Position numbers and translations under genes: made by a program
Part shown: in pieces, positions 4,070 through 34,745 of the stretch
Numbering within the stretch: position 1 is the stretch's first letter
How the letters are laid out: every line of letters starts with the position of its first letter
Origin: a virus
Lineage: Duplodnaviria; Caudoviricetes
IMG/VR virus record: IMGVR_UViG_3300027902_000002
Location: 1-48,758 of that record
Strand: one strand, 5' to 3'
Length of the DNA: 48,758 nucleotides
Notes under the pieces: model-generated
Database searches by the model: none
What the model was told of the DNA's origin: nothing
What the model saw: only the letters and a program-made list of their open reading frames with translations

Positions 4070-5347
4070 TCATTCATCAGGTTCCAAGCCGAGCTGTTTC
4101 ATGGCTTTATTGTACTCTTCGTCGCTGACTTCATCATCGGGGAGTTTTTTCTGGATTACTTTGTCCTTAGCGAACCCTCCTTTAATTTCATAGTCAACAA
4201 CGGGCTTTGCAGCTTTCATCATCTTATCCAAGGCTTTAGGGTCGGCTTTAGCCATTTCCATTAAAGATTCCTCTTGGGCGGGAACGGCTAATCCAGCCTT
4301 AATATACCCTACAACCTTAGTTTTGAGCTTGTCTTCCTGTAAGTCAGCCAACTGAGCTTGTATTTCTTGTGGTACTGCTGGTTTGGTTTCCATTAGGTCA
4401 TGGACAAGCGTAGTGAGCTTGTCTATGTCTTCCCGGAGTTTTCCAATCTCGGTTTCAGGTTCAGGGTCTCCTTCGGGCTCTACTGGTTCTCCAGTAGGCA
4501 CGGCCTGTGGTTCGCCTGTTGGTTCCCCAGTAGGTTCTACGGGGTCTGCACCCTTAATGGGTTCATTTTCTGGTTTATCTACCATATTAATATCCTCCTG
4601 TGAACTTTTAGACATTAACAACATCTCTCCGTTAGGCTCAGACTTAACCAAGCATTCTTGGCAGCCTCCTCGCTCAACGTAATCGATGCGGTCTATGCCC
4701 TTTAATCGTTTAAATACATAATCTATGTCATTTCTTTCGCATTCATCGGACTCAAACGGTCCCTGAATACTAACAGCGGGTAATTCACCATTGGCTTCTA
4801 ATTCCTGGACTGCGGGGTTCGTGATTTCTTTTTCCAAGATGTATATGGCTTCGCCGTCGGTTCCAATCTTCTTAACCTTACCGATGTTAGACGGGTCCAA
4901 TTTCTTTAAGAGTGGATACCGTTTGAGTAAGGCTTCATCGAAGTGTTCAATGCCCATATTAATACCATCGCTATTCAGTTTGTCTCTCATAAGCCTAAAG
5001 GTGGGTATTATGGTCTCCTTAGGGACTGCGAGGACTTTAGGCTCGCCGTTTATATAGAGTTTGTGTTTACCCGGGGCCCAAGCTTTGGTCGCCTCAAGCC
5101 AATTGGTGGCTGCAACGGTTGTGGATGCTGGTTCAAAGGTGCTGCACGTAACGTTATTCTTAGTCAACCATGCTTTAGCAGCCGCTGGTGTAAACGTGGT
5201 CTTTGAGAATCTGTATGCCTGTGTCTCGCTCTTACCGGCCTTTATACCCAATATTATGGATACACCCGGACCGAGCGTCTTACGAGCAAAGCTATCATAT
5301 CCTTTCGGGTCTTTAACTCTGCAAGCGTGTTCATTCGGGTATGGCAT
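4070..5347 (-). CDS. Prohead protease-scaffold protein
   Basis: Position between MuF and capsid genes; central domain with candidate His (GIEH) and Ser (PAVS); acidic Pro-rich linker and coiled-coil C-terminus; ATG at 5347 follows AGGAGG. Confidence 0.72.
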   Translation of the reverse strand: MPYPNEHACRVKDPKGYDSFARKTLGPGVSIILGIKAGKSETQAYRFSKTTFTPAAAKAWLTKNNVTCSTFEPASTTVAATNWLEATKAWAPGKHKLYINGEPKVLAVPKETIIPTFRLMRDKLNSDGINMGIEHFDEALLKRYPLLKKLDPSNIGKVKKIGTDGEAIYILEKEITNPAVQELEANGELPAVSIQGPFESDECERNDIDYVFKRLKGIDRIDYVERGGCQECLVKSEPNGEMLLMSKSSQEDINMVDKPENEPIKGADPVEPTGEPTGEPQAVPTGEPVEPEGDPEPETEIGKLREDIDKLTTLVHDLMETKPAVPQEIQAQLADLQEDKLKTKVVGYIKAGLAVPAQEESLMEMAKADPKALDKMMKAAKPVVDYEIKGGFAKDKVIQKKLPDDEVSDEEYNKAMKQLGLEPDE

Positions 5348-5417
5348 TATCACGCCTCCTTAACGTTTATTTCAAAAATAGTATTTAACCGTAAAAATTG
5401 GAATCTTATAATCGTTA

Positions 5418-5565: not shown

Positions 5566-5904
5566 TTATCTTCCTCCTTTTTTGAAATCTTCATCAAATT
5601 TATCAGCCATTGCTTGTAGTTCCTTTAAAGTCTTATCGGACTTCATATCCAGCCTCATACGGAACATCCGAGGCAGACTGAAGTTAAACCATAATAGTGG
5701 GTTGTCCTCGACCTTTAAAGCAGCGTGGCCGGGTCCTACGAAGTCATCGTACCTCATAACCTCTAATAAATACTTCTTATCCGCATCGTGCTGTTTTGCT
5801 TTGTTTAGCACCTTAACCGCATCTTTAAACGGCTTGGAACTATCATAAACATAAAGGCACGTTCCGCGGTGCTTATTCTGTTTAATCTGATAATAAAGCG
5901 TCAT
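5566..5904 (-). CDS. Hypothetical protein, candidate immunity partner of the MuF effector
   Basis: ATGA overlap with the MuF stop; GAGGTG RBS; function inferred from position only. Confidence 0.65.
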   Translation of the reverse strand: MTLYYQIKQNKHRGTCLYVYDSSKPFKDAVKVLNKAKQHDADKKYLLEVMRYDDFVGPGHAALKVEDNPLLWFNFSLPRMFRMRLDMKSDKTLKELQAMADKFDEDFKKGGR

Positions 5905-8900
5905 AGACTCGCCATCCCCACCTCGAGGGCTTTTTGCTCTGTATAGTCATAGAGCATCTGTTCTAACTCTGAAAGATAACTCCTCACCTGACCCCTTAAA
6001 TCCTCTGGAATCTGTGTATAATCAATATTATCCCTTAGGGCCTGTATAGACGAGCCGAAAGTCTCATTAACCCAATTTTCAATGCTTAATCTTTCGCCTG
6101 GATAAAGTTTTTCATTCTGGACCGCATCTTCAATTATAGCGTCTCCGAAGAAGTTACGCATCGAGTTACCTTCAGTCTCGCCCATACTGAGCCCGTCGTC
6201 GATGTTAATGAGCCTAAATTCGTTTACTCCGCGGGAGTCCACTGTGGTCTCTATCATGTAATTGCCCATGTGTCCGTCCGTGTTATTGATTAGAACATCT
6301 TTTACAATACTATCAATACCGGGTTGGAGTAATTCGGGGTTATCTGGGTCTAATATCTCTGATGCGGGTCCCCATAGTGATTCCCAAGTATCTCCGCCCG
6401 CGTCTTGGGCATAGGAGACCCAGAAATTTCCCTCCGCATTCCAAGCGGATTCGGTCGTCTCTCCATCCCCTAACATATCAAACAAAGCCGGGTCGGCCTG
6501 TTGCAGCCATTCACCACTCTGCATACGTATATTTTCGGGTGAGGTGAACTTATCGTTGTTGAATGCATCTGTTATGGCTTTTCCGAGTTGCTCGTTCTCT
6601 GATTGCTCGTAACTAACCGCCTTTGCATACCAATAGGTTCCATCCTTGTCTGCGAAGTAAACAGGACTGTTCATGCTGTCCTCAGAGGCATGGCCCTCAA
6701 TATAATCACTTATAGGTGAATCGTAAAGGTTTGGAACCTCCCTTGGTCCTGGTACTGCTCTTAGTTCCTTGGTTGCTTCTTCTATGCGTAGTTGTTCGGC
6801 GGCTGCGTCTTTGGCGTGTGTTTCGGCCTCCGCTACCACATTGTCCCACATTGAGCGATATACTGTCTGGAAATCAAGATTCGGGTTATTAGCGGCGATG
6901 TCTTCCCATATACCGGGACTCTGGGCCCTTAATTCTTGGAACATATATGTATGAGCTGCAACGCCGTCGTCTGGGTACATTCTTTGGCCTTCGGCGAGTA
7001 GTTGGTCCTTCAATTCCTTATACGCCCAGTTATAGTCATCTGTCATGGCATCGGCTAACTCTGAACGTCCGAATATGCCTAATTCATCCATTGCTTGCGG
7101 TGTATCCGTTCCAAACCGCATATAATACATATTACCCTCGGCGTCGTAAGACTGGAGTTCTGCGATATTAGCCCGCATCATAGCCGCCACGTCCTCAACG
7201 TCGAATGCTATGTTACCACCCGGACCTGTTGCCCAGTCTCCTTGCTGGATAATCATATAGGAGTATTCTCTGCTAAATCTGAACTCGCGAAGCAAATATT
7301 CATCACTTAATTTACCCGGTCCAACCCCGAAATCACGCATAGACATCCCACGAGTGTCCATTACTGCTCCTCGGAGCATACTGGTCTGCTGTTGCTGTAT
7401 AGCGTACTCATAGGACGCCGTATATCTTTCATTTGCTAATACTTCCTGTGCGGCCTTCACTACATCCCGGGCCTCCTTATACTCAGGCGAACCCACCTTA
7501 TCAGATAGTAATGACATCTCTTCCTCTGAGAGTAGTCCTCCACGCTCCGATTTGGCAAGGGTCTCTGCTATGGTCTGCACGTCTTGACGGTACTGTTGAA
7601 CCTCCTCAGCAACCGTTAATTCAGGTTTCGCTTCCTGTGCTTCTATTACTGTTAGTTTAACGGTGTGCATGGTCTCGTCAATCGAATCCACCCGGAATGT
7701 AAGGTTCCTGTCCAATAAGAGCTCTGCTTCCCCTTGACGGGCTGCAACCTCTTCAAAGTACCCCGCTTGCCAATCCTCCGTATATTGGAAGAAATCAACA
7801 GGCAAGGCATCCGTACCACTCGGCACGGTTATCTCAGCACGCCAACTGTCCATAGGCAAATTAAGAGTGTCAATGGCTGTATTAAGTCCATCCTCGGTCA
7901 TTGCGGTACTTACGAAACTGGGGTCTGTCCAGACCGTTCCAACCGTGCAATCGTCAAAGGCGGTTGGACTGTACGCCCTAACCACAGTAATATCCTGTTC
8001 AAGACCCCATGAGACATTCATAGCATCATCAATATTGTTTATCTCTTTAATCAACTCTACGTACGCCTCTGAGTCAGCCGGGGCCGTATCACCCGCTAAC
8101 CATGTTTGCAATTCCTCCGGGCCTTTAGGGAGGTCTTCAAAGTTCTTTAAAAACCCATTAATCTCGGTTGAACCCGAGGATTGGTAATAGTCGAACGACG
8201 CTTGCACGTCCTCAAAGTTAGAGAGTGATGTGATGTTCTCAAGCCCACCGGGTAGATAATCATTGGCCATAGCAGCATAGGCGTCGCCCAAGTCCGTGAA
8301 TGTTGGTCGTATGCCAACTCGCCATAAAACATCCTGAGCCTCTGGATGCTCTAATCGTGCTAAGGACTCGTTTACTTCGGTTAAAGTCATCTTATCATAG
8401 ATAATACTCTGCTCTGGGCTTAATTTCTGTCCCATGCTTATGTTTTGCATTATCTGGTCCATTACTTGCTGGTCTGAGGTAACGAGGTTCACTAAGTCCT
8501 CGAATGAAGTGGGAGTTGGTGGAATTTCGGGGTCCGGAAACGGGTCGTTACACCGGCAGCCGAAGTGAGGTGGCTCTGGATAGTCATCGGCGGGGTATGG
8601 GCCGCCCGATTCCAAATCGGCACAGTCTTCACAGACTGATTCGTCTCCTTGCGTAACCCATGGGAATACGACCCCTAATCCGTATGATTCGGTTAGGCTG
8701 CCCTGCTTTTCGGCTTCAATGCCTCCAAACATTCCCATCTTATCAGCGATGTTCTGCTCGTTCTGGAATGCTATGTTCTCTGCATAGGGACGGGCTGATA
8801 TTATATTCTGAGCCTTAGCCTCACCAATCATCCCATTAAGGTGTGTTATGTCATTAGTATTAACAATAGGCCCGAATGCTTGCCCTAAATATGTTGGAAA

Positions 8901-9056
8901 TGGTATAATTGGCTCGGCAGCCTGTAACATCTTCTCTTGCCCTGATAGGGGCATTGCTGCGAGGGATAGGCTCATGAAGTAACCTATACCAGCGTTTAGT
9001 TCTATCTCACGCTGAAACCGCTGGAAAATAGGATTAGAGTCTAATAAACTTATCAT
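5901..9056 (-). CDS. MuF-family minor head protein fused to an ADP-ribosyltransferase and a HipA/PI3K-like kinase
   Basis: MuF motifs WVTQGDESVCEDC and PPHFGCRC; VIP2/Alt-like ART motifs INGFL, VVR, FVST, EAELLL; kinase motifs YAK, NE, NTDGHMGN, IDDG. Confidence 0.85.
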   Translation of the reverse strand: MISLLDSNPIFQRFQREIELNAGIGYFMSLSLAAMPLSGQEKMLQAAEPIIPFPTYLGQAFGPIVNTNDITHLNGMIGEAKAQNIISARPYAENIAFQNEQNIADKMGMFGGIEAEKQGSLTESYGLGVVFPWVTQGDESVCEDCADLESGGPYPADDYPEPPHFGCRCNDPFPDPEIPPTPTSFEDLVNLVTSDQQVMDQIMQNISMGQKLSPEQSIIYDKMTLTEVNESLARLEHPEAQDVLWRVGIRPTFTDLGDAYAAMANDYLPGGLENITSLSNFEDVQASFDYYQSSGSTEINGFLKNFEDLPKGPEELQTWLAGDTAPADSEAYVELIKEINNIDDAMNVSWGLEQDITVVRAYSPTAFDDCTVGTVWTDPSFVSTAMTEDGLNTAIDTLNLPMDSWRAEITVPSGTDALPVDFFQYTEDWQAGYFEEVAARQGEAELLLDRNLTFRVDSIDETMHTVKLTVIEAQEAKPELTVAEEVQQYRQDVQTIAETLAKSERGGLLSEEEMSLLSDKVGSPEYKEARDVVKAAQEVLANERYTASYEYAIQQQQTSMLRGAVMDTRGMSMRDFGVGPGKLSDEYLLREFRFSREYSYMIIQQGDWATGPGGNIAFDVEDVAAMMRANIAELQSYDAEGNMYYMRFGTDTPQAMDELGIFGRSELADAMTDDYNWAYKELKDQLLAEGQRMYPDDGVAAHTYMFQELRAQSPGIWEDIAANNPNLDFQTVYRSMWDNVVAEAETHAKDAAAEQLRIEEATKELRAVPGPREVPNLYDSPISDYIEGHASEDSMNSPVYFADKDGTYWYAKAVSYEQSENEQLGKAITDAFNNDKFTSPENIRMQSGEWLQQADPALFDMLGDGETTESAWNAEGNFWVSYAQDAGGDTWESLWGPASEILDPDNPELLQPGIDSIVKDVLINNTDGHMGNYMIETTVDSRGVNEFRLINIDDGLSMGETEGNSMRNFFGDAIIEDAVQNEKLYPGERLSIENWVNETFGSSIQALRDNIDYTQIPEDLRGQVRSYLSELEQMLYDYTEQKALEVGMASL

Positions 9057-9589
9057 TTCAATATCCGTCCATAAGTGTCCATAGCCTTATCAAGCCTTAA
9101 CTGTTGCCTTAAACGACCACGCAAGCGTAGTCCAATGTCCTCAGCGTTATCCTGTTGCTGTGCAATCAAATCAGCGAGGTTCGCCATATCCGGCTGCTTA
9201 GGCGTGGCCTTGCCTATAACAGCCAATGCAAGTTCGGTTCGTTTCATCCCATCCTGAAACCCTTTAGTAACGTATTCAAGGGCTGTCTGTTGCATATCTT
9301 TGATAAAGGTGTCAATCCTACTGTCTAATTGCTTAATCTTACCATCTGTGCCCGTCTTACTGACTAATATCTTATCATAATCCACGTAAACATCTTTAAG
9401 CAACGCTAACAAAGCAGCCCTGTATTCTACCTCTATATCGCTGGGCTTACCCTCACCCATGGTTAGGTCGGGCTTAAAATCCAGTTTAACAGGTGCTGGA
9501 GTGGGTGCCTTAGCGGCTTCGACGATTAGGTCTTCTAATACGTCTTCGCGTATCTGGAGCCAAGGAAACTCAAATTCAGCATCTGTCAT
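9053..9589 (-). CDS. Helical head-morphogenesis-associated protein (possibly a detached N-terminal part of MuF)
   Basis: Between portal and MuF with ATGA coupling; amphipathic helical sequence. Confidence 0.6.
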   Translation of the reverse strand: MTDAEFEFPWLQIREDVLEDLIVEAAKAPTPAPVKLDFKPDLTMGEGKPSDIEVEYRAALLALLKDVYVDYDKILVSKTGTDGKIKQLDSRIDTFIKDMQQTALEYVTKGFQDGMKRTELALAVIGKATPKQPDMANLADLIAQQQDNAEDIGLRLRGRLRQQLRLDKAMDTYGRILK

Positions 9590-9591
9590 GG

Positions 9592-11307
9592 TTAGAATCC
9601 TCGTAGTATGCCACGTTCCTTCATGTATTGCTTAACGCCGGCTATTAAGTGCGAATCGTCATGTGCTCGGGCCTTAACCGTTTGTACATCCTGCGGGTTG
9701 GCTATGGGTGTCTTAGCAGTCTCCGGCTGAGCTGTGCTGGGTGCTGCTTGTCCTACCGGGTTAATGCCACCCGGTGGGATGGGTGGTACAATATTAACAG
9801 GGGTGGGTGGACCGGGTGCCTTTTCCTTAAAGTCCACATTAACATCGGTGAATTGCTCAACCGCCTCTTTAACAAGGTCTTGGAACCATTGCTCATCCCC
9901 AGAGATGTTCCCGTACTGGAAGTAGGGTTGTAAAGCATTCAACAAGCCTATAACATCTTCATCAGTAACCGTCTCGAAGCTAAAGTTCGGATACTTATCA
10001 ACATTGTAATTCATGTCCACTAATTCCTTTATCTTCGATTCAAAGAGCGATGCGATGTCCTCATGAATACCATCCAAGACCGTTGCGAGTACGTCCGCAT
10101 GAGTCTTACTTTGGGCATAGCTGCCTGATGCTTCGGTCTGTCCCAGTATAAGGCTTCCTATCATGAAGCGACGGAAAATCATGGTATCATGGTAGGCGAT
10201 AGCACTTTGGAAGCCCTCTCCCTTCTGCCCTGTCTCAAGGAGTCCGAGTTCGTCGGCTATATTAGTAACCATGTTCGTACGACCCTCCTTAATCTGGTCG
10301 AGGCTATCCATCATCTTGGATTCATCCGCCGGGTTAGCAATCTTCCCATAGAGTGTAGGGCTCTGTAATTTCTGTAAAAAGATATTGTACCATTTTAGTA
10401 TCTTCCTTTTCATAAACCAATGGTCATACACCTGCTTCAGGATACTGCGACCATATTTGTTCCCGAACTCCTCATCAAAGCTGTATATAAGACACTTTTC
10501 GGGTGGTATCTCCACATAGCCCTCTATACCGCCATAGTATTGACGTATGCTCTCTACGTCGCCATACTCATTATAAACGAAACAACTATCCAAGGTCTCT
10601 ATGTCGATAGATTTAACATCGTCCCACACAATCTGATTCTTAGCGTCATCATAGCGATATATAATCTCTGATATGCTGAAACCATAGGGAATAGCGGTGT
10701 AAATGTCTTTGCGGATACGTCGCATGGTTGTTTTCATGTCTCCGAGCATATCTTCCACGAAATCCGCAACCTCTTCATTAAGGGTCTGTTCTGGGCTTTT
10801 AATGGGTTCTATGGGTGTGGGTTTGGGTGGTTCTGGAACGGGTTGCCCTGTCAAAGGCGATACGGGTTTATCGGGTTGTATGGATGGTGATGTTGTTTCA
10901 AAGGTAGGAGCAGCAGTCCCTTCTAATGTAATGATGTTAGGCTCCGCAGTATCCTTAGACAACACCTCAGGAACCGGCTGAGTTTCATCCGGCTGCATTG
11001 GAACCTCCTCAACCTCTAAGATATGCTCACTGGCTGGCGTTATAATAAAGTCCTTCGATAAAAGGGTGTATGTTATAAGGTCCAACCCCGCCCTGATTTG
11101 AGCATCCAAGTCCACCATACGCTGATAATCCTCAATGCCTCTGTCTGGATTGTACGTTTCGCCAAACATCTGCCCAAACCACGTTTCTTTCGGCTTACTT
11201 AATCGTTGGCCTAATAGGCGTGGTAAGGTCTTAGATGGGACGTTGCCGAGTGCTGAGGCGGCTGCTCGTAATCTAAGGGTTGTTCCTTCAAACATGATAC
11301 TATTCAC
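9592..11307 (-). CDS. Portal protein (Mu gp29/DUF935-like)
   Basis: AIPYGFSISEIIY, NKYGRSILK, GSYAQSKTH motifs; lies downstream of TerL. Confidence 0.88.
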   Translation of the reverse strand: MNSIMFEGTTLRLRAAASALGNVPSKTLPRLLGQRLSKPKETWFGQMFGETYNPDRGIEDYQRMVDLDAQIRAGLDLITYTLLSKDFIITPASEHILEVEEVPMQPDETQPVPEVLSKDTAEPNIITLEGTAAPTFETTSPSIQPDKPVSPLTGQPVPEPPKPTPIEPIKSPEQTLNEEVADFVEDMLGDMKTTMRRIRKDIYTAIPYGFSISEIIYRYDDAKNQIVWDDVKSIDIETLDSCFVYNEYGDVESIRQYYGGIEGYVEIPPEKCLIYSFDEEFGNKYGRSILKQVYDHWFMKRKILKWYNIFLQKLQSPTLYGKIANPADESKMMDSLDQIKEGRTNMVTNIADELGLLETGQKGEGFQSAIAYHDTMIFRRFMIGSLILGQTEASGSYAQSKTHADVLATVLDGIHEDIASLFESKIKELVDMNYNVDKYPNFSFETVTDEDVIGLLNALQPYFQYGNISGDEQWFQDLVKEAVEQFTDVNVDFKEKAPGPPTPVNIVPPIPPGGINPVGQAAPSTAQPETAKTPIANPQDVQTVKARAHDDSHLIAGVKQYMKERGILRGF

Positions 11308-11733: not shown

Positions 11734-12384
11734 CTAACCCCTACCAAGTTTAAGGTCATGCCAAGTCTTCTGTTCCTTCTCAAAGACCACTAACCCCGGA
11801 TAAAAGTGAATGCCCTGCAATGAGAACGTGAAATCCAATACGGCTTGCTCTGGGTTCATGTCTTGGGTAACATTCAAAGAATCTATCAACTTCTTAGCCA
11901 AAGCCATGAACGTGAAGGGCTGGTCCTGTCCGCCTCCATACGCCGGCCAATAACTGGTATAAACATCCTCACAGACATAGATACCATTCGGCTGGACGTG
12001 TGGGTACAGTTGCTCGAAAGACTGGATTTGCTGTCCCATAACATGGCTGCAATCGTCGATTAAAATATCAACCCGTGGCATCGTGGCCTTTAGGTCGTCT
12101 AAAACTTCGGGTAGGTTCACATCACCAACGTATAATGTAATCTGGTCATCCTCCACACTCCTCGCGGTGTCTGAGATGTCCACACCCATCACCTTGCAGT
12201 TTGGGCCGAAGTAATCACGCCACAGCTCCAAAGAACCGCCCTTATACGCTCCAAGTTCCAATACGTGCACATCAGTCCCTATATACCTATCAAAGTGCAA
12301 CGGGTACACCCTGAAGAAATTGGGCGGCTTGTTAACCGGCCTACGCACATTAATCGTCTGTGCAATCGTTTCCATACTATCCAT
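11734..12384 (-). CDS. Class I SAM-dependent methyltransferase (sugar O-methyltransferase-like)
   Basis: VLELGAYKGGSL, GVDI, DILIDDCSH, GIYVCEDVYTSYW motifs. Confidence 0.85.
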   Translation of the reverse strand: MDSMETIAQTINVRRPVNKPPNFFRVYPLHFDRYIGTDVHVLELGAYKGGSLELWRDYFGPNCKVMGVDISDTARSVEDDQITLYVGDVNLPEVLDDLKATMPRVDILIDDCSHVMGQQIQSFEQLYPHVQPNGIYVCEDVYTSYWPAYGGGQDQPFTFMALAKKLIDSLNVTQDMNPEQAVLDFTFSLQGIHFYPGLVVFEKEQKTWHDLKLGRG

Positions 12385-15739: not shown

Positions 15740-15955
15740 CTATTTCATCTTATCAAATTGACTTAATGCCAGTTCCACATCATTTCTCTGGACTGTTACC
15801 CTTTTAGCGTGGCGTGCGTTCCTCCATGCGAGGGTGGCTATATTCTCCGCGTATTCTTCCAACGCTGCCTTTAGGAACTCTGTACCATCATAAGAAACTC
15901 TTATGGGCCCGGCTTCCTTGATTATCTTCCATATTGGCCTATGTTTCAACTCCAT
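15740..15955 (-). CDS. Archaeal HMf-family histone
   Basis: Gap-free match to the HMfA/B pattern: MEL..PI..IIK.AG..RVS, LEE...IA..A...ARHA.R.T....D.ELA; GGAGGTGA RBS. Confidence 0.93.
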   Translation of the reverse strand: MELKHRPIWKIIKEAGPIRVSYDGTEFLKAALEEYAENIATLAWRNARHAKRVTVQRNDVELALSQFDKMK

Positions 15956-15956
15956 G

Positions 15957-16508
15957 TTAAATCACCTCCCATGGGTACATTATCCCATCCGCGGGTGGAC
16001 CTTGTAGTACAAGACCGCAATGGTGGCATACGACCTCCGCACGTTTATAGTCCTTCATAATGTCCTGCGAGTAACATTCAACGCACGTGGAGATAGGTAA
16101 ACCTGTTATTAAGGTTAGATTATGCTGGAAATAATCATTAGCCGTCGCATAGGGATGCGTTACCATAATTCCAATCTCCGATTTAAACCTTTTATCCTTA
16201 CTAATAACCGTGGAAAATAAAACTCTATTCCGTTCACGCCTAACCACGACCGATTCTATCTGTATATCGTCAATGCGGTGAGCTCCAATCATTGCCGTTC
16301 CCATCTTCTTTAACTCTGTCTCCCGCCTGTTTTTCCACCTATAAGCCCGCTGGTAGTTTCTTTTCTGCTCGAGCAACGCTTCCTTCTTACAGGTGTCAGA
16401 GCAGTATTTACTGTTCCCATGACTGTACTCGAACCAGTCAGGGCACCATTTACATTTCCGCCATATTTCGGGCGTTGCCGTTACATAGGCGGGCGTTACG
16501 GTGGACAT
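15957..16508 (-). CDS. Zn-finger protein with C-terminal TFIIB/TFB-type zinc ribbon; candidate late transcription regulator
   Basis: N-terminal CKWC...YCSDTC; C-terminal CVECYSQDIMKDYKRAEVVCHHCGLVL matches the TFB ribbon pattern CxxC...D..RAE.VCxxCGLV. Confidence 0.75.
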   Translation of the reverse strand: MSTVTPAYVTATPEIWRKCKWCPDWFEYSHGNSKYCSDTCKKEALLEQKRNYQRAYRWKNRRETELKKMGTAMIGAHRIDDIQIESVVVRRERNRVLFSTVISKDKRFKSEIGIMVTHPYATANDYFQHNLTLITGLPISTCVECYSQDIMKDYKRAEVVCHHCGLVLQGPPADGIMYPWEVI

Positions 16509-16671: not shown

Positions 16672-17214
16672 TTATTCTACCTTTGTGAGTTTATAATCTA
16701 TCAGAGGATGTTCTTTGAAGCCAGAGGGCTTAAACGCTAAGAGAAAGACTCCCGGGGTCTCCCAGTCATCCTCCGCTCTTAGAATCACCATATCTTGAAA
16801 TATGAATAAAATGTCGCCAACGGTATAACGCCAATAGTCGTAGGGGAAGTCGTGCTTTGGGAATCCCGGGCCACGGGTGGTTAGTATTATGCATCCGCCG
16901 GTTTTAACCACGCCTTTAAGATTGTGGATTACATCTTGCCAGTTTTCCACGTGTTCCATTAACTCCGTGCAAACCACTAAGTCGAACGCACCCACCCCGA
17001 ATGCGTCTATCAGGTCCTCAGCATTCACGATTTCATCAACACCCCTTCCTTCTTCGATGTCCACACCTATATATTCCTTAGGCTTCATCTCTTCGATTAA
17101 TGGTCTTAGGGAGCCGTTCAAATCTTTGCTACCTACTTCTAAGACTGTTTTATTGGTTATCATGGCTTCTGTGAGCTGGGTTTCGCCAAACATCAAACAA
17201 GATACATGACACAT
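16672..17214 (-). CDS. Class I SAM-dependent methyltransferase (Methyltransf_11-like)
   Basis: VLEVGS.D.NGS, YIGVD, FDLVVCTELMEHV, H.FP.DYWR motifs. Confidence 0.85.
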   Translation of the reverse strand: MCHVSCLMFGETQLTEAMITNKTVLEVGSKDLNGSLRPLIEEMKPKEYIGVDIEEGRGVDEIVNAEDLIDAFGVGAFDLVVCTELMEHVENWQDVIHNLKGVVKTGGCIILTTRGPGFPKHDFPYDYWRYTVGDILFIFQDMVILRAEDDWETPGVFLLAFKPSGFKEHPLIDYKLTKVE

Positions 17215-17325
17215 TTTAATCCTCCTTGCGGTCTTTTTTCTTTGTTTGGCTTGCTTTTTTTAAGATTTTAAACCATTCGGCTTCGCTAACCTCTTTTTCA
17301 TTATAGAAATACACGTTCTCCATCC

Positions 17326-17529
17326 TTAATCCTCCTTAAATTCTTTAGACTGAGTTATTTTGATTTCTAAGTTCACTTCAGAGCGTATATAAACAGGCCA
17401 CGGCTCGTTAATGGTCATAATCATGTCAGCGTCTGCTGAAGCATTAAAATCGAGATATAAGTCTTCACCGTCCTTTAATTTTTCTTCTAATAACTCTATT
17501 AATGCCCTTTTTTTTATAGGATACCGCAT
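17326..17529 (-). CDS. Hypothetical protein
   Basis: AGGAGG RBS before MRYPIKK at 17529. Confidence 0.6.
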   Translation of the reverse strand: MRYPIKKRALIELLEEKLKDGEDLYLDFNASADADMIMTINEPWPVYIRSEVNLEIKITQSKEFKED

Positions 17530-17542
17530 TCTAACGCCTCCT

Positions 17543-18295
17543 TTAGTCGAAATACCACTCCACGAACTGCTTATCACCATACACGATACTATAATAGTGT
17601 TGTTTCATCATAGGATGCGGGTTAGGGTCTCGTTCCATATATTTCTTAAACTTCATACGCTGCTCGTTTTCAGGAATAGACCATCCATAATGCTTAATAT
17701 GTAACCCCGATGGTATAAGTGGTTCCGGGCTGTTTATCGGCGTCCTGCCTCCGTGTAGGGCTGCCGGGCTCCATTGGTAGTTCACTTGGGGTAACCAGCG
17801 TACCATACAGAGCATTTGCTTTTGTACCGGGTTCCATCCCCTGTCGATGCGTACGTGCTTCTTATCGCCCCAGAACTCCCAGAACTGGAAGTAATAGCCA
17901 TTCACTTCATCTTGGGCCATCATCTGGTCCTTAACGGCTGGGAATCGTTTATCCATTTCCTCGTCCGTATCTATGGCTAAAACCCAATCTTGGTCATGTC
18001 GTGGTAGTATATCAGTCCATAGGAACGACCGTAACTCGTTTTCCGCTTCCCAGAACGTTGATTCGTTGTTTCGGTAATAGAAGATGTTTTTATGCTTTTT
18101 AGCGAAATCTTCCATAATCTTTTGAGTGTTATCCTTACTTCCATCGTCCAATGCCACTATCTGGTCCGCATAGGTCAAGACTTCGGGTATGAAGGTTGGT
18201 AAGGTTTTCTCTTGGTCTTTAATGACCAATGCAACGGTTAAAATATTAGTGGGTGGTTTGTCTATGAATCTGTCATCAACGAGGTTAGTCTTCAT
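17543..18295 (-). CDS. GT-A fold (GT2-like) glycosyltransferase
   Basis: IVALDDGSKDNT and DxD motif WVLAIDTDE. Confidence 0.85.
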   Translation of the reverse strand: MKTNLVDDRFIDKPPTNILTVALVIKDQEKTLPTFIPEVLTYADQIVALDDGSKDNTQKIMEDFAKKHKNIFYYRNNESTFWEAENELRSFLWTDILPRHDQDWVLAIDTDEEMDKRFPAVKDQMMAQDEVNGYYFQFWEFWGDKKHVRIDRGWNPVQKQMLCMVRWLPQVNYQWSPAALHGGRTPINSPEPLIPSGLHIKHYGWSIPENEQRMKFKKYMERDPNPHPMMKQHYYSIVYGDKQFVEWYFD

Positions 18296-19085
18296 CTAAG
18301 ACCACCTTACCATAGCACCGGCCGTCTTGAAGGAATTGCTGCCATTTCTGCTCGAAATATTGCTTACTATTAAAAACATAAGTCTGAAGTACCTGTTCAC
18401 GCTGCTCCGTTTGCTGATGCAAGTGTATTAAGAAGCTCTCAGGCTGATAACGGATTTTATAGCCCTCCCACCGAGCTTTATAGCTAAAGTCGGTTTCCTC
18501 GTAGTATAGGAAGTATCCCGGGTCAAAACCACCCCACTTCTCAAACAAGTCCCTACGTACTGCGTAAACAGCTCCAGAGATTGTCAGACAGTCTTCTGGT
18601 TCGTTGAACTGTCCCTTATCCTCTTTTCCCCAATAATGGTTCATTTCTGGCTCTGCATTGGTCCCCCAGACACAGGCAGCCATTATCTGATTCTGATGGT
18701 TTAAAAGCTTAGGGCCAACCACAGCAACCTTCTTATCATCCCTAAAGGCTTTTATAAGGGGTGTTATCCAATCAGGGCATTTATCATGGACTAATATATC
18801 ACTATTCATAAAGATAATATATTCACCATCGCCCAGCTTAGCACCCTTGTTACAGGCTCCTCCGTATCCAAGGTTCCGGGTTGCCTTCCAGCCCTCCATA
18901 ATATCAGGGAATCGTGCATTGGCCCGGGTTATGTAGTCATAACTCTTATCTGTGCTCGCATTATCTATTACAGTCATTTTATAGTCCGCAAACTCCGTTT
19001 TTTCCAATACTTGCGGTAACGCTTCCTTCATCAAATGTGCGGTGTTAAAGTTCACCAATACCAAATCCACCAAATAATCACTCAT
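18285..19085 (-). CDS. GT2 glycosyltransferase (WbbL/rhamnosyltransferase-like)
   Basis: VIDNASTD, NLGYGGACNKG, FMNSD, GGFDPGYFLYYEETD. Confidence 0.9.
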   Translation of the reverse strand: MSDYLVDLVLVNFNTAHLMKEALPQVLEKTEFADYKMTVIDNASTDKSYDYITRANARFPDIMEGWKATRNLGYGGACNKGAKLGDGEYIIFMNSDILVHDKCPDWITPLIKAFRDDKKVAVVGPKLLNHQNQIMAACVWGTNAEPEMNHYWGKEDKGQFNEPEDCLTISGAVYAVRRDLFEKWGGFDPGYFLYYEETDFSYKARWEGYKIRYQPESFLIHLHQQTEQREQVLQTYVFNSKQYFEQKWQQFLQDGRCYGKVVLDED

Positions 19086-19095
19086 TAAATCACCT

Positions 19096-20052
19096 CTACT
19101 CCTTTTTTACTACCTCAATCTTGGGGGCCACGTCTGTGGGCTCTGTCATGCTCCTCGGAGGCATAGGTGCCATTTGAGGCAATTTCTCTTGCTCCATGTT
19201 CTGCAAATACTGAGCCATCATTGCTTGGTCCATGATATGAGCTGGATGCACTAATCTGTCGAGATAAACCGGAAAGCCGGCTTCTCGTATCCTTTCACAA
19301 AAGTAAACGTCCTCACCTTGCCAATGGGAGCCATACTCGACCCCGGGTAAGTCTAAAATGTCTTTACGTATCGCAGACACCGCCCCAGTCATACCCACCG
19401 ACACCGGGCCACTGTATCGCTCACAGTCGATGTAAGGGCCGCGGGTTCCATCCCAATGAACATTATCGTGTGGGCAAAGGCCGTTAGATTGCTCGTATTC
19501 CCTGTACTGGAGGTATCTGAGGTCCCGGTGGACATAGGCGTTCTCACCATTCGGTAATTTGCCTGATTGTTCCATGAAGTTGTATGCCATGACACCCACC
19601 CATGGTCCGGCCTGTATAGGTCCATTAGGGATTACTCCGGCCGTCATGGGTAAACCCCAGTTTACGAGTGTAGAGATGTCCTTTGGCTGAATTATGATGT
19701 CAGAATCTATGGATACGATAACCTCGTCTTCCTCAGTCCTCATTTCAAGGAAGCGGTTGCGTAGTAATGAAAAATAAGAAAAGAACCGCCCAGCGAACCG
19801 GTTATCCCTCCAGTTCCCATTTGCGGTCCATAAAGAAATTTTGCGAAAATCAGTTCCACGCTCGGATTTAAAGTCTTTAAGCAATTGGAGCGTTTTATCC
19901 TTGCTATTGTTAACAAGCATCGCAAGGTGTATCTGGTCATTCGGATAGTCCGATTTATCAATGGCATTGAGCCAATGGGGAAGTATCCACTCCCGATTCT
20001 GTATGGGTCCGCCTATTAGGATGTTAGGGGTCATTCTAATAGCTCCGCTCAC
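19096..20052 (-). CDS. GT-A fold glycosyltransferase (true start probably MTPNIL)
   Basis: NNSKDKT, LRNRFL, SIDSDI (DxD), GEDVYFC...GFPVYLD...H. Confidence 0.82.
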   Translation of the reverse strand: MSGAIRMTPNILIGGPIQNREWILPHWLNAIDKSDYPNDQIHLAMLVNNSKDKTLQLLKDFKSERGTDFRKISLWTANGNWRDNRFAGRFFSYFSLLRNRFLEMRTEEDEVIVSIDSDIIIQPKDISTLVNWGLPMTAGVIPNGPIQAGPWVGVMAYNFMEQSGKLPNGENAYVHRDLRYLQYREYEQSNGLCPHDNVHWDGTRGPYIDCERYSGPVSVGMTGAVSAIRKDILDLPGVEYGSHWQGEDVYFCERIREAGFPVYLDRLVHPAHIMDQAMMAQYLQNMEQEKLPQMAPMPPRSMTEPTDVAPKIEVVKKE

Positions 20053-23031: not shown

Positions 23032-23652
23032 TCACTCCTTTACGGTATATAACATCCCCACACCCGGGTTATGCCGGTCCAACTCCACCCAATGCCAATC
23101 ACGCTCAGACAAGTCCAAGAAATCCTCCACAGCCGGAATCAACCCATTAAAACTCCCACCAGCGTAATCGGCGGGTCCGTTGGCTATATGGGTTTGGTGG
23201 ACGTATCTCTTTGGGATAGCCTTTACATTGAAGTAAAAGTCCCTGTAACGGTTTTCTACGGTGTCATGGACGAAAATAAGCGGCGGCTCGCCCTTAAACT
23301 TTGCGTCGATTATCTGAAGCTCTTTGAGCAAAGTATAGTAGTTATGGTCGCCGTCGAGTATAATAACATCGTAGCGGTCGAGTTTGGGCAGTATCTCAAG
23401 GCTGGGGTAGTTATAAATATCCACCAATTCCGGGTCGTTAGACTCCTGCAATCTCACTTCAGGGAGTATAACGGGGTCCACAATGATAAGCCGCTTGTCT
23501 CCATCCTCTGGTAGTTCTTTAAGGTAGTTGATTATTTTGATGGTGTTCCATCCTTTAAACACCCCTACCTCGACGATAACCCGGGGCTTTGGCTCTAACA
23601 GGTCAAATATCGGTTTCTCAAGTTCATCAAAATAACGATAGATTCTAATCAC
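23032..23652 (-). CDS. SAM-dependent methyltransferase (Methyltransf_24-like)
   Basis: IVEVGVFKG.NT, DVIILDGDHNYYT, FVHD, NGL..AVEDFL. Confidence 0.82.
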   Translation of the reverse strand: MIRIYRYFDELEKPIFDLLEPKPRVIVEVGVFKGWNTIKIINYLKELPEDGDKRLIIVDPVILPEVRLQESNDPELVDIYNYPSLEILPKLDRYDVIILDGDHNYYTLLKELQIIDAKFKGEPPLIFVHDTVENRYRDFYFNVKAIPKRYVHQTHIANGPADYAGGSFNGLIPAVEDFLDLSERDWHWVELDRHNPGVGMLYTVKE

Positions 23653-33781: not shown

Positions 33782-34729
33782 CTATTTACATTTATATCCT
33801 GTGATAAACTGTCTTAAAGCCGCCTTAAAGGCAGTACAGTCCGATGGAGTCGGCTTTGGCCCGGGCGTGGGCTTAGGTGGTGGTGTTGGTGCGGGGTAGT
33901 TTGCGGATGTTATACCCATAGCGTCAATCTGTTGGTCCGTGAATGTCTTATACGGAACCAGACTATTCCCCTTTGCTCCCCAAGAGGGTCCCCAACTATT
34001 CCTCACATAGAAGGCACCTTTACTGGTTGTTCCGGGTACGGAGACCGCATCATCCCAGCCCCAGAGATACCGAGCGTGTCCACCAGCCAAGGGGTCGTTT
34101 ACACTATTGGATGAAGCGTATGGCTCCAGTCCATCACTTCCTACGTGGAATATTGATTCGTGAACATCCCATCCCGCCATTACTGGAACTCCGGCATATA
34201 TGGATTGCTTTATGGCATTAACCTTATAAATATCGTCTGGTATAATGAAATATTTAGAGACATCATAGGTCTTAGCAGTGTCTATAACTACCTGTGATGG
34301 TTGCTTATCGAAGTTCTGGGTTGTATATGCGAATGCTGACTCTAATCCGATTCCCCAGACTTGCATAGCTGTCATGGTGTCCCTTATGGTACAGCCTTCA
34401 TCTCCAGAGGGTGGTGTGTCCCCGTTCATGACATAGCGGTTAAAATAGTAGAGATACATCTCTGAGAAGTCCATAGTATTCTTTATTAGTGGGTTGGATT
34501 CATCATAGAACTCCATAATACCAGCACCGGCAAATGAGGTGCACGCTCCGTAATTCATCTGGTCCCGTACCGGGATTTTATCAACATACTGCTTTAATCC
34601 GGTATAATTGGAGGGTAAGGCTTTTATGGGTACTACTCTTAAATGTGGCCTTATTAACGGGTCCGTCATCAAATAGTCCCGTACGTCTGGCTTTTGCTTA
34701 ATCCAACCGAATCCTCTCTCAGATGTCAT
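33782..34729 (-). CDS. Papain-like C1A cysteine peptidase
   Basis: GW....PD.RDY, RDQ..YGACTSFA, GGHA, VRNSWG.SWG.KG; Pro-rich C-terminus; ATG at 34729. Confidence 0.9.
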   Translation of the reverse strand: MTSERGFGWIKQKPDVRDYLMTDPLIRPHLRVVPIKALPSNYTGLKQYVDKIPVRDQMNYGACTSFAGAGIMEFYDESNPLIKNTMDFSEMYLYYFNRYVMNGDTPPSGDEGCTIRDTMTAMQVWGIGLESAFAYTTQNFDKQPSQVVIDTAKTYDVSKYFIIPDDIYKVNAIKQSIYAGVPVMAGWDVHESIFHVGSDGLEPYASSNSVNDPLAGGHARYLWGWDDAVSVPGTTSKGAFYVRNSWGPSWGAKGNSLVPYKTFTDQQIDAMGITSANYPAPTPPPKPTPGPKPTPSDCTAFKAALRQFITGYKCK

Positions 34730-34745
34730 TCCAATCACCTCGTAG

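Follow-up and report, generated by a model that had tools for sequence, protein, structure and literature searches.

MuF polymorphic toxins are encoded in the phage head module, end in a variable C-terminal enzyme and are followed by an open reading frame (ORF) of small size (PMC5576092, PMC3482391). Enterococcus EFV MuF-ART and Streptococcus MuF-Apk2 are examples. The downstream ORF was reported for 89% of bacterial MuF toxins, and ADP-ribosyltransferases (ARTs) make up 14% of the 191 MuF toxins listed by Jamet et al. 2017 (PMC5576092). In the main text of that paper, the terms "kinase", "JAB" and "archae" have no occurrences; Euryarchaeota already figure among the MuF carriers in a table of Zhang et al. 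2012 (PMC3482391). Cognate immunity has been demonstrated for MuF-Apk2 (PMC12226406), and SPP1 gp7 is found in one or two copies together with the portal (PMC5576092). T4 Alt is a packaged protein that is injected and acts on RNA polymerase by modifying it, and Alt/VIP2 ARTs are often fused to MuF (PMC5512222, PMC9503650). The T7 kinase disarms defences (PMC13645617), and VP1, a virion protein of an archaeal halovirus, blocks BREX (bioRxiv 2026.04.28.721311). Here we describe a related gene in a tailed virus (Duplodnaviria; Caudoviricetes), IMG/VR record IMGVR_UViG_3300027902_000002, whose 48,758 nucleotides (nt) constitute the window analysed. The gene encodes P0001, in which a MuF core is fused to a VIP2/Alt-type ART, a degenerate JAB-like domain and a predicted HipA/PI4KII-type kinase. 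P0001 is likely packaged, released with the viral DNA and able to modify host proteins, in the service of takeover or anti-defence rather than killing; we hold this reading, which draws on domain analysis and analogy, at about even confidence.

Domain composition of the fusion protein

The ART domain matches Pfam family PF03496 with an E value of 1.9e-11 (44.1 bits against a cut-off of 23.4) and retains all R-S-E motifs, namely R360 in VVR 358-360 (nt 7985), S383-T-A in FVST 381-384 (nt 7916) and E443-A-E445 (nt 7736 region). An ART had been called initially on these motifs. ARTs with an ExE motif usually modify arginine, which is probably the target residue of the P0001 ART. A sequence search of the PDB with this domain returned weak C3-like matches, and no close homolog was found in our searches. 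The sole close homolog of the fusion protein, the 899-residue P0002 (42% identity over 566 residues), features a full MuF domain that scores over the cut-off, the middle domain and the kinase. Since P0002 lacks the ART, this domain looks like a swappable cassette.

No Pfam or other library entry, HipA Pfam domains included, directly named the C-terminal domain as a kinase, and PDB sequence searches with either the domain or the whole protein returned no match. The domain features the motifs YAK 810-812 (nt 6629), ENEQ 820-823, DGHMGN 927-932 (nt 6278) and IDDG 952-955 (nt 6203), in which the catalytic residues K812, E822, D927, H929, N932 and D953 are kept; E822 takes the place of the alphaC glutamate and D953 that of the metal-binding aspartate. 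A motif scan of viral contigs yielded 84 stretches corresponding to 61 distinct in-frame domains; 13 loci were dropped, being near-duplicates of stand-alone HipA-like genes, PI3Ks of eukaryote-like type, or else truncated or spurious, and the remaining 48 members formed a profile of DRHxGN kinases. This profile detected P0001 (E 1.8e-9) and P0002 (E 3.6e-8), the next window protein scoring E 0.05, and hhalign paired the domain with the profile at 96% (score 59.7, whereas 40 shuffles reached 20.0 at most). The six catalytic residues are invariant or nearly so in an alignment of 44 rows (42 viral domains, P0001 and P0002), where the choice of rows on the motif itself makes the DxHxGN and ID columns invariant. 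PF00454 (PI3_PI4_kinase) is matched by 39 of these rows. An alignment-free language-model atlas gave kinase matches of 0.94-0.96, including PI3_PI4_kinase and HipA_2 clusters.

A first fold model, built from a two-row alignment, was unusable (predicted local distance difference test, pLDDT, 33). The model obtained from the 44-row alignment reached a pLDDT of 78.5 and features a full helical C-lobe. The best matches among solved structures were two PI4KIIa entries (Z 10.4, root-mean-square deviation 4.7 over 206 aligned residues, and Z 10.3). CtkA (Z 10.0), Fam20 (9.6), HipA (9.3; deviation 4.2, 195 aligned) and CotH (9.3) also matched, and the top 13 structures (Z 8.5-10.4) all fall in the PI4K/PI3K/CtkA/Fam20/HipA/CotH branch or in an entry titled just "kinase". 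Among viral models, the best Foldseek matches include phage head-morphogenesis, portal, PI3K-like and ART-named proteins. The three lines of evidence (profile, language model and fold) agree on a predicted HipA/PI4KII-type kinase. A HipA/PI3K-like kinase had been named in the initial annotation, made from the letters alone, which had also suggested the comparison with solved folds that supports it here (Z 9-10).

The two leading PI4KIIa matches, with MavQ and PI3Ks next, and the PI3_PI4_kinase assignment of the relatives raise the possibility that the kinase acts on a lipid or small molecule, for instance an archaeal inositol phospholipid, at the membrane during entry. Inositol ether lipids do occur in Methanobacteriales, the likely hosts (see below). 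However, the protein kinases CtkA, Fam20, HipA and CotH are tied with the lipid kinases within 1.1 Z units, and the loop of the P0001 kinase reads DGH, not DRH; E. coli HipA has a DGH loop as well. We consider a lipid or small-molecule substrate most unlikely.

The middle domain was compared with viral domains carrying an HNHP...FSxxD signature. The scan recovered 120 stretches, equal to 70 distinct domains, six of which have a MuF motif within their 1.5-kb flank; 63 were kept after two RadC-like, two spurious and three truncated ones were dropped. The middle segment of P0001 and P0002 aligned with the 63-domain profile over 83 columns (hhalign, P 1.2e-5), and its score of 31.0 contrasts with at most 15.3 in 150 shuffles, 9.9 for the reversed sequence and at most 11.1 in non-overlapping windows. 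Inclusion of the helical tail extended the alignment to 140 columns (P 5e-6). The uncut alignment against a 15-sequence profile kept the same register with weaker support (P 0.12), hmmsearch scores were low (3.2 bits for P0001, -3.2 bits for P0002), and the language-model atlas gave no match. The JAB reference set is itself tied weakly to RadC (2 of 15 members; 2qlc, E 0.08), and matches of the JAB profile to Pizza proteins were discarded as repeat artefacts. With this moderate support, the domain is probably JAB-like, as had been suspected, and it runs further than the segment first delimited. The predicted loss of the HNHP metal ligands was borne out: HNHP aligns at about IIQQ, and residues 476-700 of P0001 contain no histidine. 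Because the family glutamate and both histidines are replaced in P0001 and in P0002, the domain is probably not a zinc enzyme; D622 is kept in P0001.

The MuF core carries C142-x2-C145 (nt 8633) and H164-x2-C167-x-C169 (nt 8567), the place at which a MuF head protein had been called. Its Pfam MuF match is weak (E 0.004, under the cut-off), and hhalign aligned it with ORF11 of psiM2/psiM100 at 97% (P 2.5e-11). The core is unlike the MuF proteins of the capsid relatives of the virus (E 0.11), and the module therefore looks imported. Ten psiM-like loci were found, and the MuF proteins of the five displayed are 202-220 residues long, lack an extension and have isoelectric points (pI) of 4.1-4.2.

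The composite make-up of P0001 could also mark a decaying chimera, in which the ART was recently inserted and at most one of the enzymes still works. The JAB-like domain has probably lost its activity already, the ART is without a close homolog, the sequence clusters of P0001 are singletons, and the stretch from S383 to E445 is longer than in gp16 of mycobacteriophage Onyinye. Yet the frame is open, all catalytic residues of both enzymes are kept, and the kinase motifs are invariant relative to P0002 at 57% identity between the two kinase domains. We regard decay as very unlikely.

The MuF slot in related viruses

Among the matches listed in protein-database searches, P0002 was accompanied only by a weak kinase-repeat protein, P0005 (E 2.4), and remote relatives were possibly missed; direct searches of viral contigs found no close relatives of whole P0001 or of its C-terminal half. 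Scans with the capsid and portal proteins identified 40 close loci (4 and 36), of which 12 break off before the slot between portal and protease genes can be read and nine are duplicates. Fifteen of the 19 distinct loci encode a short MuF protein (268-304 residues) with no ORF before the protease. The four others (L139, L155, L166 and L167) feature a long MuF protein followed by an ORF of 87-123 residues, the small ORF being associated with 4/4 extended and 0/15 short MuF genes. The extension is a PHP phosphoesterase in L139 and L155. In L166 and L167, it carries an HExxH motif, on the basis of which it is possibly a metallopeptidase, and there is a hint of a degenerate JAB-like stretch (P 1e-3). 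Homology among the small ORFs holds within a pair, not across pairs, and because members of a pair are kin, the four loci represent two independent cases besides the window. The survey of domain swapping that had been recommended for related viruses thus found PHP, HExxH, no enzyme at all, or, in P0002, a kinase without ART.

A small downstream ORF behind every extended MuF gene of the virus group had gone unremarked in the initial annotation. In the window, this ORF encodes a basic protein of 112 residues with no match to any library family, a candidate immunity or chaperone partner of P0001. Effector and small ORF are oppositely charged in all five loci of the group, which cover three independent effector types.

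The same loci bear on whether the enzymes stay undelivered and act late, on the virion or in the cell that produces it (control of assembly, exclusion of superinfection or CotH-like phosphorylation of structural proteins). The fusion gene lies among late genes, P0001 is extremely acidic, the top structural matches include the coat-protein kinase CotH, and in halovirus HRTV-2 the gene for the homolog of this kinase class lies among those for head-tail joining. On the other hand, 15 of the 19 relatives build heads with a short, enzyme-free MuF protein, and the enzymes must therefore be dispensable for assembly; the free swapping of unrelated enzymes fits host conflict. Late, undelivered action is in our view unlikely.

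Beyond this group, MuF or minor-capsid-2 domains are combined with PI3_PI4_kinase in nine of 30 viral kinase ORFs scanned (out of 40), several of which are cut by the 3-kb flank, and an ART in none of the 30. One of the nine, L232, has the second-best kinase score to P0001 and P0002 and a P0002-like MuF domain. The fragments of L232, L155, L166 and L167 (10-26% complete) gave no match to pseudomurein endoisopeptidase (Pei) and are uninformative on the host; we infer methanogen hosts for them from capsid and portal kinship.

Some further observations concern the relatives. L257 (G001) encodes at positions 1-1794 a MuF-kinase protein with a P0002-like MuF domain and a possible degenerate peptidase stretch, several genes away from portal and terminase, and a glycosyltransferase-like gene resembling those of the window lies near its head genes. 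L143, a close relative, belongs to a genome bin titled Bacteroidaceae and is probably misbinned. A conserved family of 70-95 residues (nine seeds chosen by eye, eight members recovered by search) directly follows viral HipA/PI4K-type kinase genes in 17 of 29 next-ORFs and is a candidate cognate inhibitor or chaperone of these kinases. A match of the small-ORF family profile to residues 357-387 of P0001 was dismissed as coincidence, as the matched stretch belongs to the core strands of the ART and P0002 does not have it.

Host, genome context and proposed role

The window is a complete siphovirus-like record of 48.8 kb with direct terminal repeats, and its minus strand holds the genes for terminase, Mu-type portal, prohead protease, HK97 capsid, tail tube and tape measure. 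The fusion gene sits in this head module, between the portal and prohead protease genes. The likely host belongs to the Methanobacteriales, pseudomurein-walled methanogens, because the virus encodes a Pei endolysin, a capsid protein that shares 31% identity with the one of vir249 (a virus whose stated host is Methanobacteriales), an archaeal histone and the psiM2/psiM100 ORF11-like MuF core. A methanogen host had been proposed initially, and these markers agree with it. Tyrosine and serine recombinases (PF00589, PF00239) were not matched in the complete genome, in searches whose controls recovered 14/14 and 12/14.

We propose that the MuF core docks P0001 at the portal, likely in few copies per particle, and that the protein would be released with the DNA into the pseudomurein-walled cell, where it would ADP-ribosylate host proteins, probably at arginine, and phosphorylate them ahead of viral gene expression. 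A virion-borne pair of modifying enzymes that reprograms a methanogen or disarms its defences had been suggested at the outset, and analogy makes this plausible. The histidine-free JAB-like domain may serve as a non-catalytic spacer or binding module, and the 112-residue basic protein may restrain the enzymes in the producing cell. P0001 is as acidic as first noted (pI 4.08, net charge -120), its pI being the lowest of 46 listed minus-strand ORFs of at least 100 residues. A strongly acidic surface could favour basic, nucleic-acid-binding targets such as RNA polymerase, histones and defence nucleases. The outcome would be takeover or anti-defence rather than killing, a preference that follows from the analogy with T4 Alt, the T7 kinase and halovirus VP1 and from the lack of an integrase; with neither recombinase type present, takeover in a lytic cycle is favoured over competition between lysogens.

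P0001 may instead belong to a classical MuF toxin-immunity pair, whose cargo arrests or kills competitors or non-productively infected cells while the 112-residue protein protects carriers. A small ORF lies behind every extended MuF of the group, comparable with bacterial MuF toxins (PMC5576092), MuF-Apk2 has cognate immunity (PMC12226406), and HipA and HipT in the matched fold branch are toxins. However, MuF toxins are reported almost solely in temperate phages (PMC5576092), and no integrase or resolvase was found here, although a plasmid-like carrier state is possible. We judge this explanation rather unlikely.

Several points weigh against delivery and takeover. Even in bacterial MuF toxins, it is a hypothesis that the extensions are delivered (PMC5576092), and "little is known" about it (PMC12226406). 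Docking at the portal is assumed from a MuF domain that comprises the C-terminal core alone and differs from that of the capsid relatives, and a net charge of -120 sits awkwardly in a head filled with DNA. The acidity is in part characteristic of the psiM-type MuF lineage, as evidenced by the five displayed loci, which weakens the idea of acidic targeting. The kinase fold match is partly circular because alignment rows were chosen for the kinase motif, the N-lobe alone does not exceed shuffles, Foldseek matches in the PDB were weak (E 2e-3 or worse), and the structure matched best is that of a lipid kinase. The two enzymes of the fusion gene face a single small ORF, the 112-residue ORF has no match to the 70-95-residue family behind other viral kinases, and charge complementarity fails as a general rule, being present in just 2/10 other MuF-kinase loci and 11/29 JAB loci.

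If P0001 is delivered and active, no protein-modifying payload borne by the virion would have been shown before it for a methanogen virus, and no member of a common viral family of HipA/PI4K-type kinases would have been characterised earlier. The locus makes it testable whether MuF extensions are injected, and whether for killing or takeover, with natural controls at hand in relatives with a short MuF protein, relatives with other enzymes, and P0002, which lacks just the ART. Methanogen viruses have a bearing on methane cycling, and little of what they use to counter defences is known. A wider proposal, possible but doubtful, is that HipA/PI4K-type protein kinases form a large unstudied family of capsid cargo in bacterial and archaeal tailed viruses, often accompanied by a conserved partner gene of about 80 codons, and phosphorylate host nucleic-acid-binding and defence proteins at DNA entry. 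The lytic particle of the window virus would add an arginine-specific ART, so that archaeal chromatin and transcription would be attacked with two marks.

The features are compiled in Table 1. The 178-residue ORF upstream of the fusion gene is possibly the lost helical N-terminal half of a split MuF protein. It is collinear with the psiM portal tail, though not above shuffles, and as a candidate MuF N-half it scored no higher than shuffles against vir249-type MuF, family MuF and the psiM portal tail. No helix-turn-helix that would suggest a HipB-type antitoxin was seen in the ORFs neighbouring the fusion gene, and its module borders show no informative repeats. The portal carries a Pro/Glu-rich insertion of about 80 residues that is missing in four relatives. 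The histone gene adjoins a gene for a TFIIB-type zinc-ribbon protein (15957-16508), and the Pei endolysin has as its neighbour a papain-like C1 peptidase whose tail is rich in proline (32765-34738, minus strand). Three methyltransferase and three glycosyltransferase-like genes, located within 11734-12384, 16672-20052 and 23032-23652 (minus strand), possibly serve virion or DNA glycosylation.

Table 1. Features of the fusion gene, its surroundings and related loci (window positions unless a locus is named)
Feature	Position	Strand	Basis or remark
MuF-ART-JAB-like-kinase fusion protein P0001, 1051 aa, pI 4.08	5901..9056	-	single intact open frame
MuF C-terminal core, aa 113-206, psiM2/psiM100 ORF11 type	8439..8720	-	hhalign; PHROG 32135 E 3e-11
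VIP2/Alt-type ART, aa 287-473	7638..8198	-	Pfam PF03496
Probable JAB/RadC-like domain, degenerate, helical tail included, about aa 562-731	6864..7373	-	viral HNHP...FSxxD profile
Atypical kinase, HipA/PI4KII/CtkA/Fam20/CotH branch, about aa 790-1042	5931..6689	-	profile, language model, fold
112-aa basic ORF, pI 9.4	5566..5904	-	start overlaps fusion-gene stop (ATGA)
178-aa ORF	9053..9589	-	stop overlaps fusion-gene start (ATGA)
Portal protein (Mu type), upstream context	9592..11307	-	Pfam PF06074 E 2e-43
Prohead protease/scaffold, downstream context	4070..5353	-	library matches
Pei endolysin	32765..33451	-	Pfam PF12386 E 4e-13, over cut-off; host marker outside effector module
Archaeal histone, virus-encoded	15740-15955	-	PF00808 E 2e-10
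MuF + PHP phosphoesterase (basic), then acidic small ORF	L139:1269-3408, L155:4682-7004		
MuF + HExxH motif, then acidic small ORF	L166:3554-6455, L167:3304-6101		
Next-ORFs of the 70-95-aa family	L176, L189, L200, L204, L208, L209, L214, L220, L222, L226, L227, L229, L244 (twice), L247, L183, L184		

Comparison with known systems

The domain combination and the polymorphic slot in a methanogen virus appear new as far as our searches reach, although each pairing has a precedent. Searches of the literature, which lay mostly outside subscription papers and wholly outside supplements, where such fusions may be listed, found nothing on MuF-fused HipA/PI4K-type kinases or on MuF effectors of methanogen viruses. 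The rarity of the architecture had been overrated at first, as MuF with this kinase class and the kinase with an ART both occur in other viruses.

P0001 shares head-module position, variable C-terminal enzymes and the small downstream ORF with MuF polymorphic toxins. It differs from them by two enzymes with intact catalytic residues plus a probably dead domain, a HipA/PI4K-type kinase and a truncated psiM-type MuF, and its carrier is an archaeal virus in which no integrase was found. The closest MuF core, ORF11 of psiM2/psiM100 (Leisingerviridae), is likewise acidic, yet short and unextended. To our knowledge, T4 Alt is not a MuF fusion. Like T4 Alt and the phage polyvalent proteins (Iyer et al. 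2017, PMC5512222), P0001 joins several host-directed enzymes, with an Alt/VIP2-type ART, in one head-linked polypeptide; the kinases described for polyvalent proteins lack the C-terminal subdomain, whereas that of P0001 has its full helical C-lobe.

Both enzyme classes of P0001 occur together in Onyinye gp16 (MN813687, 1340 aa), which contains this kinase class (aa 179-405, E 1.6e-18 to our kinase profile) and a VIP2-type ART (aa 1158-1332, Pfam E 7e-8), adjoins the terminase and, like P0001, is followed by an oppositely charged small ORF. In contrast to P0001, its domain order is reversed, MuF and JAB-like domains were not detected, and the host is bacterial; no study of gp16 was found in the literature searched. 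The "phosphatidylinositol kinase" gp16 of haloviruses HRTV-2/HSTV-2, known from annotation alone, also comes from archaeal tailed viruses, and belongs to the same kinase class (E 6e-25), lies in the virion gene block and precedes a small ORF, but is not fused to MuF and has no ART. The T7 protein kinase, which counters defences by phosphorylating nucleic-acid-binding proteins, offers a model for the P0001 kinase, although it is expressed early, is not virion cargo and belongs to another kinase family, and such promiscuity is not general among phage kinases (PMC13645617).

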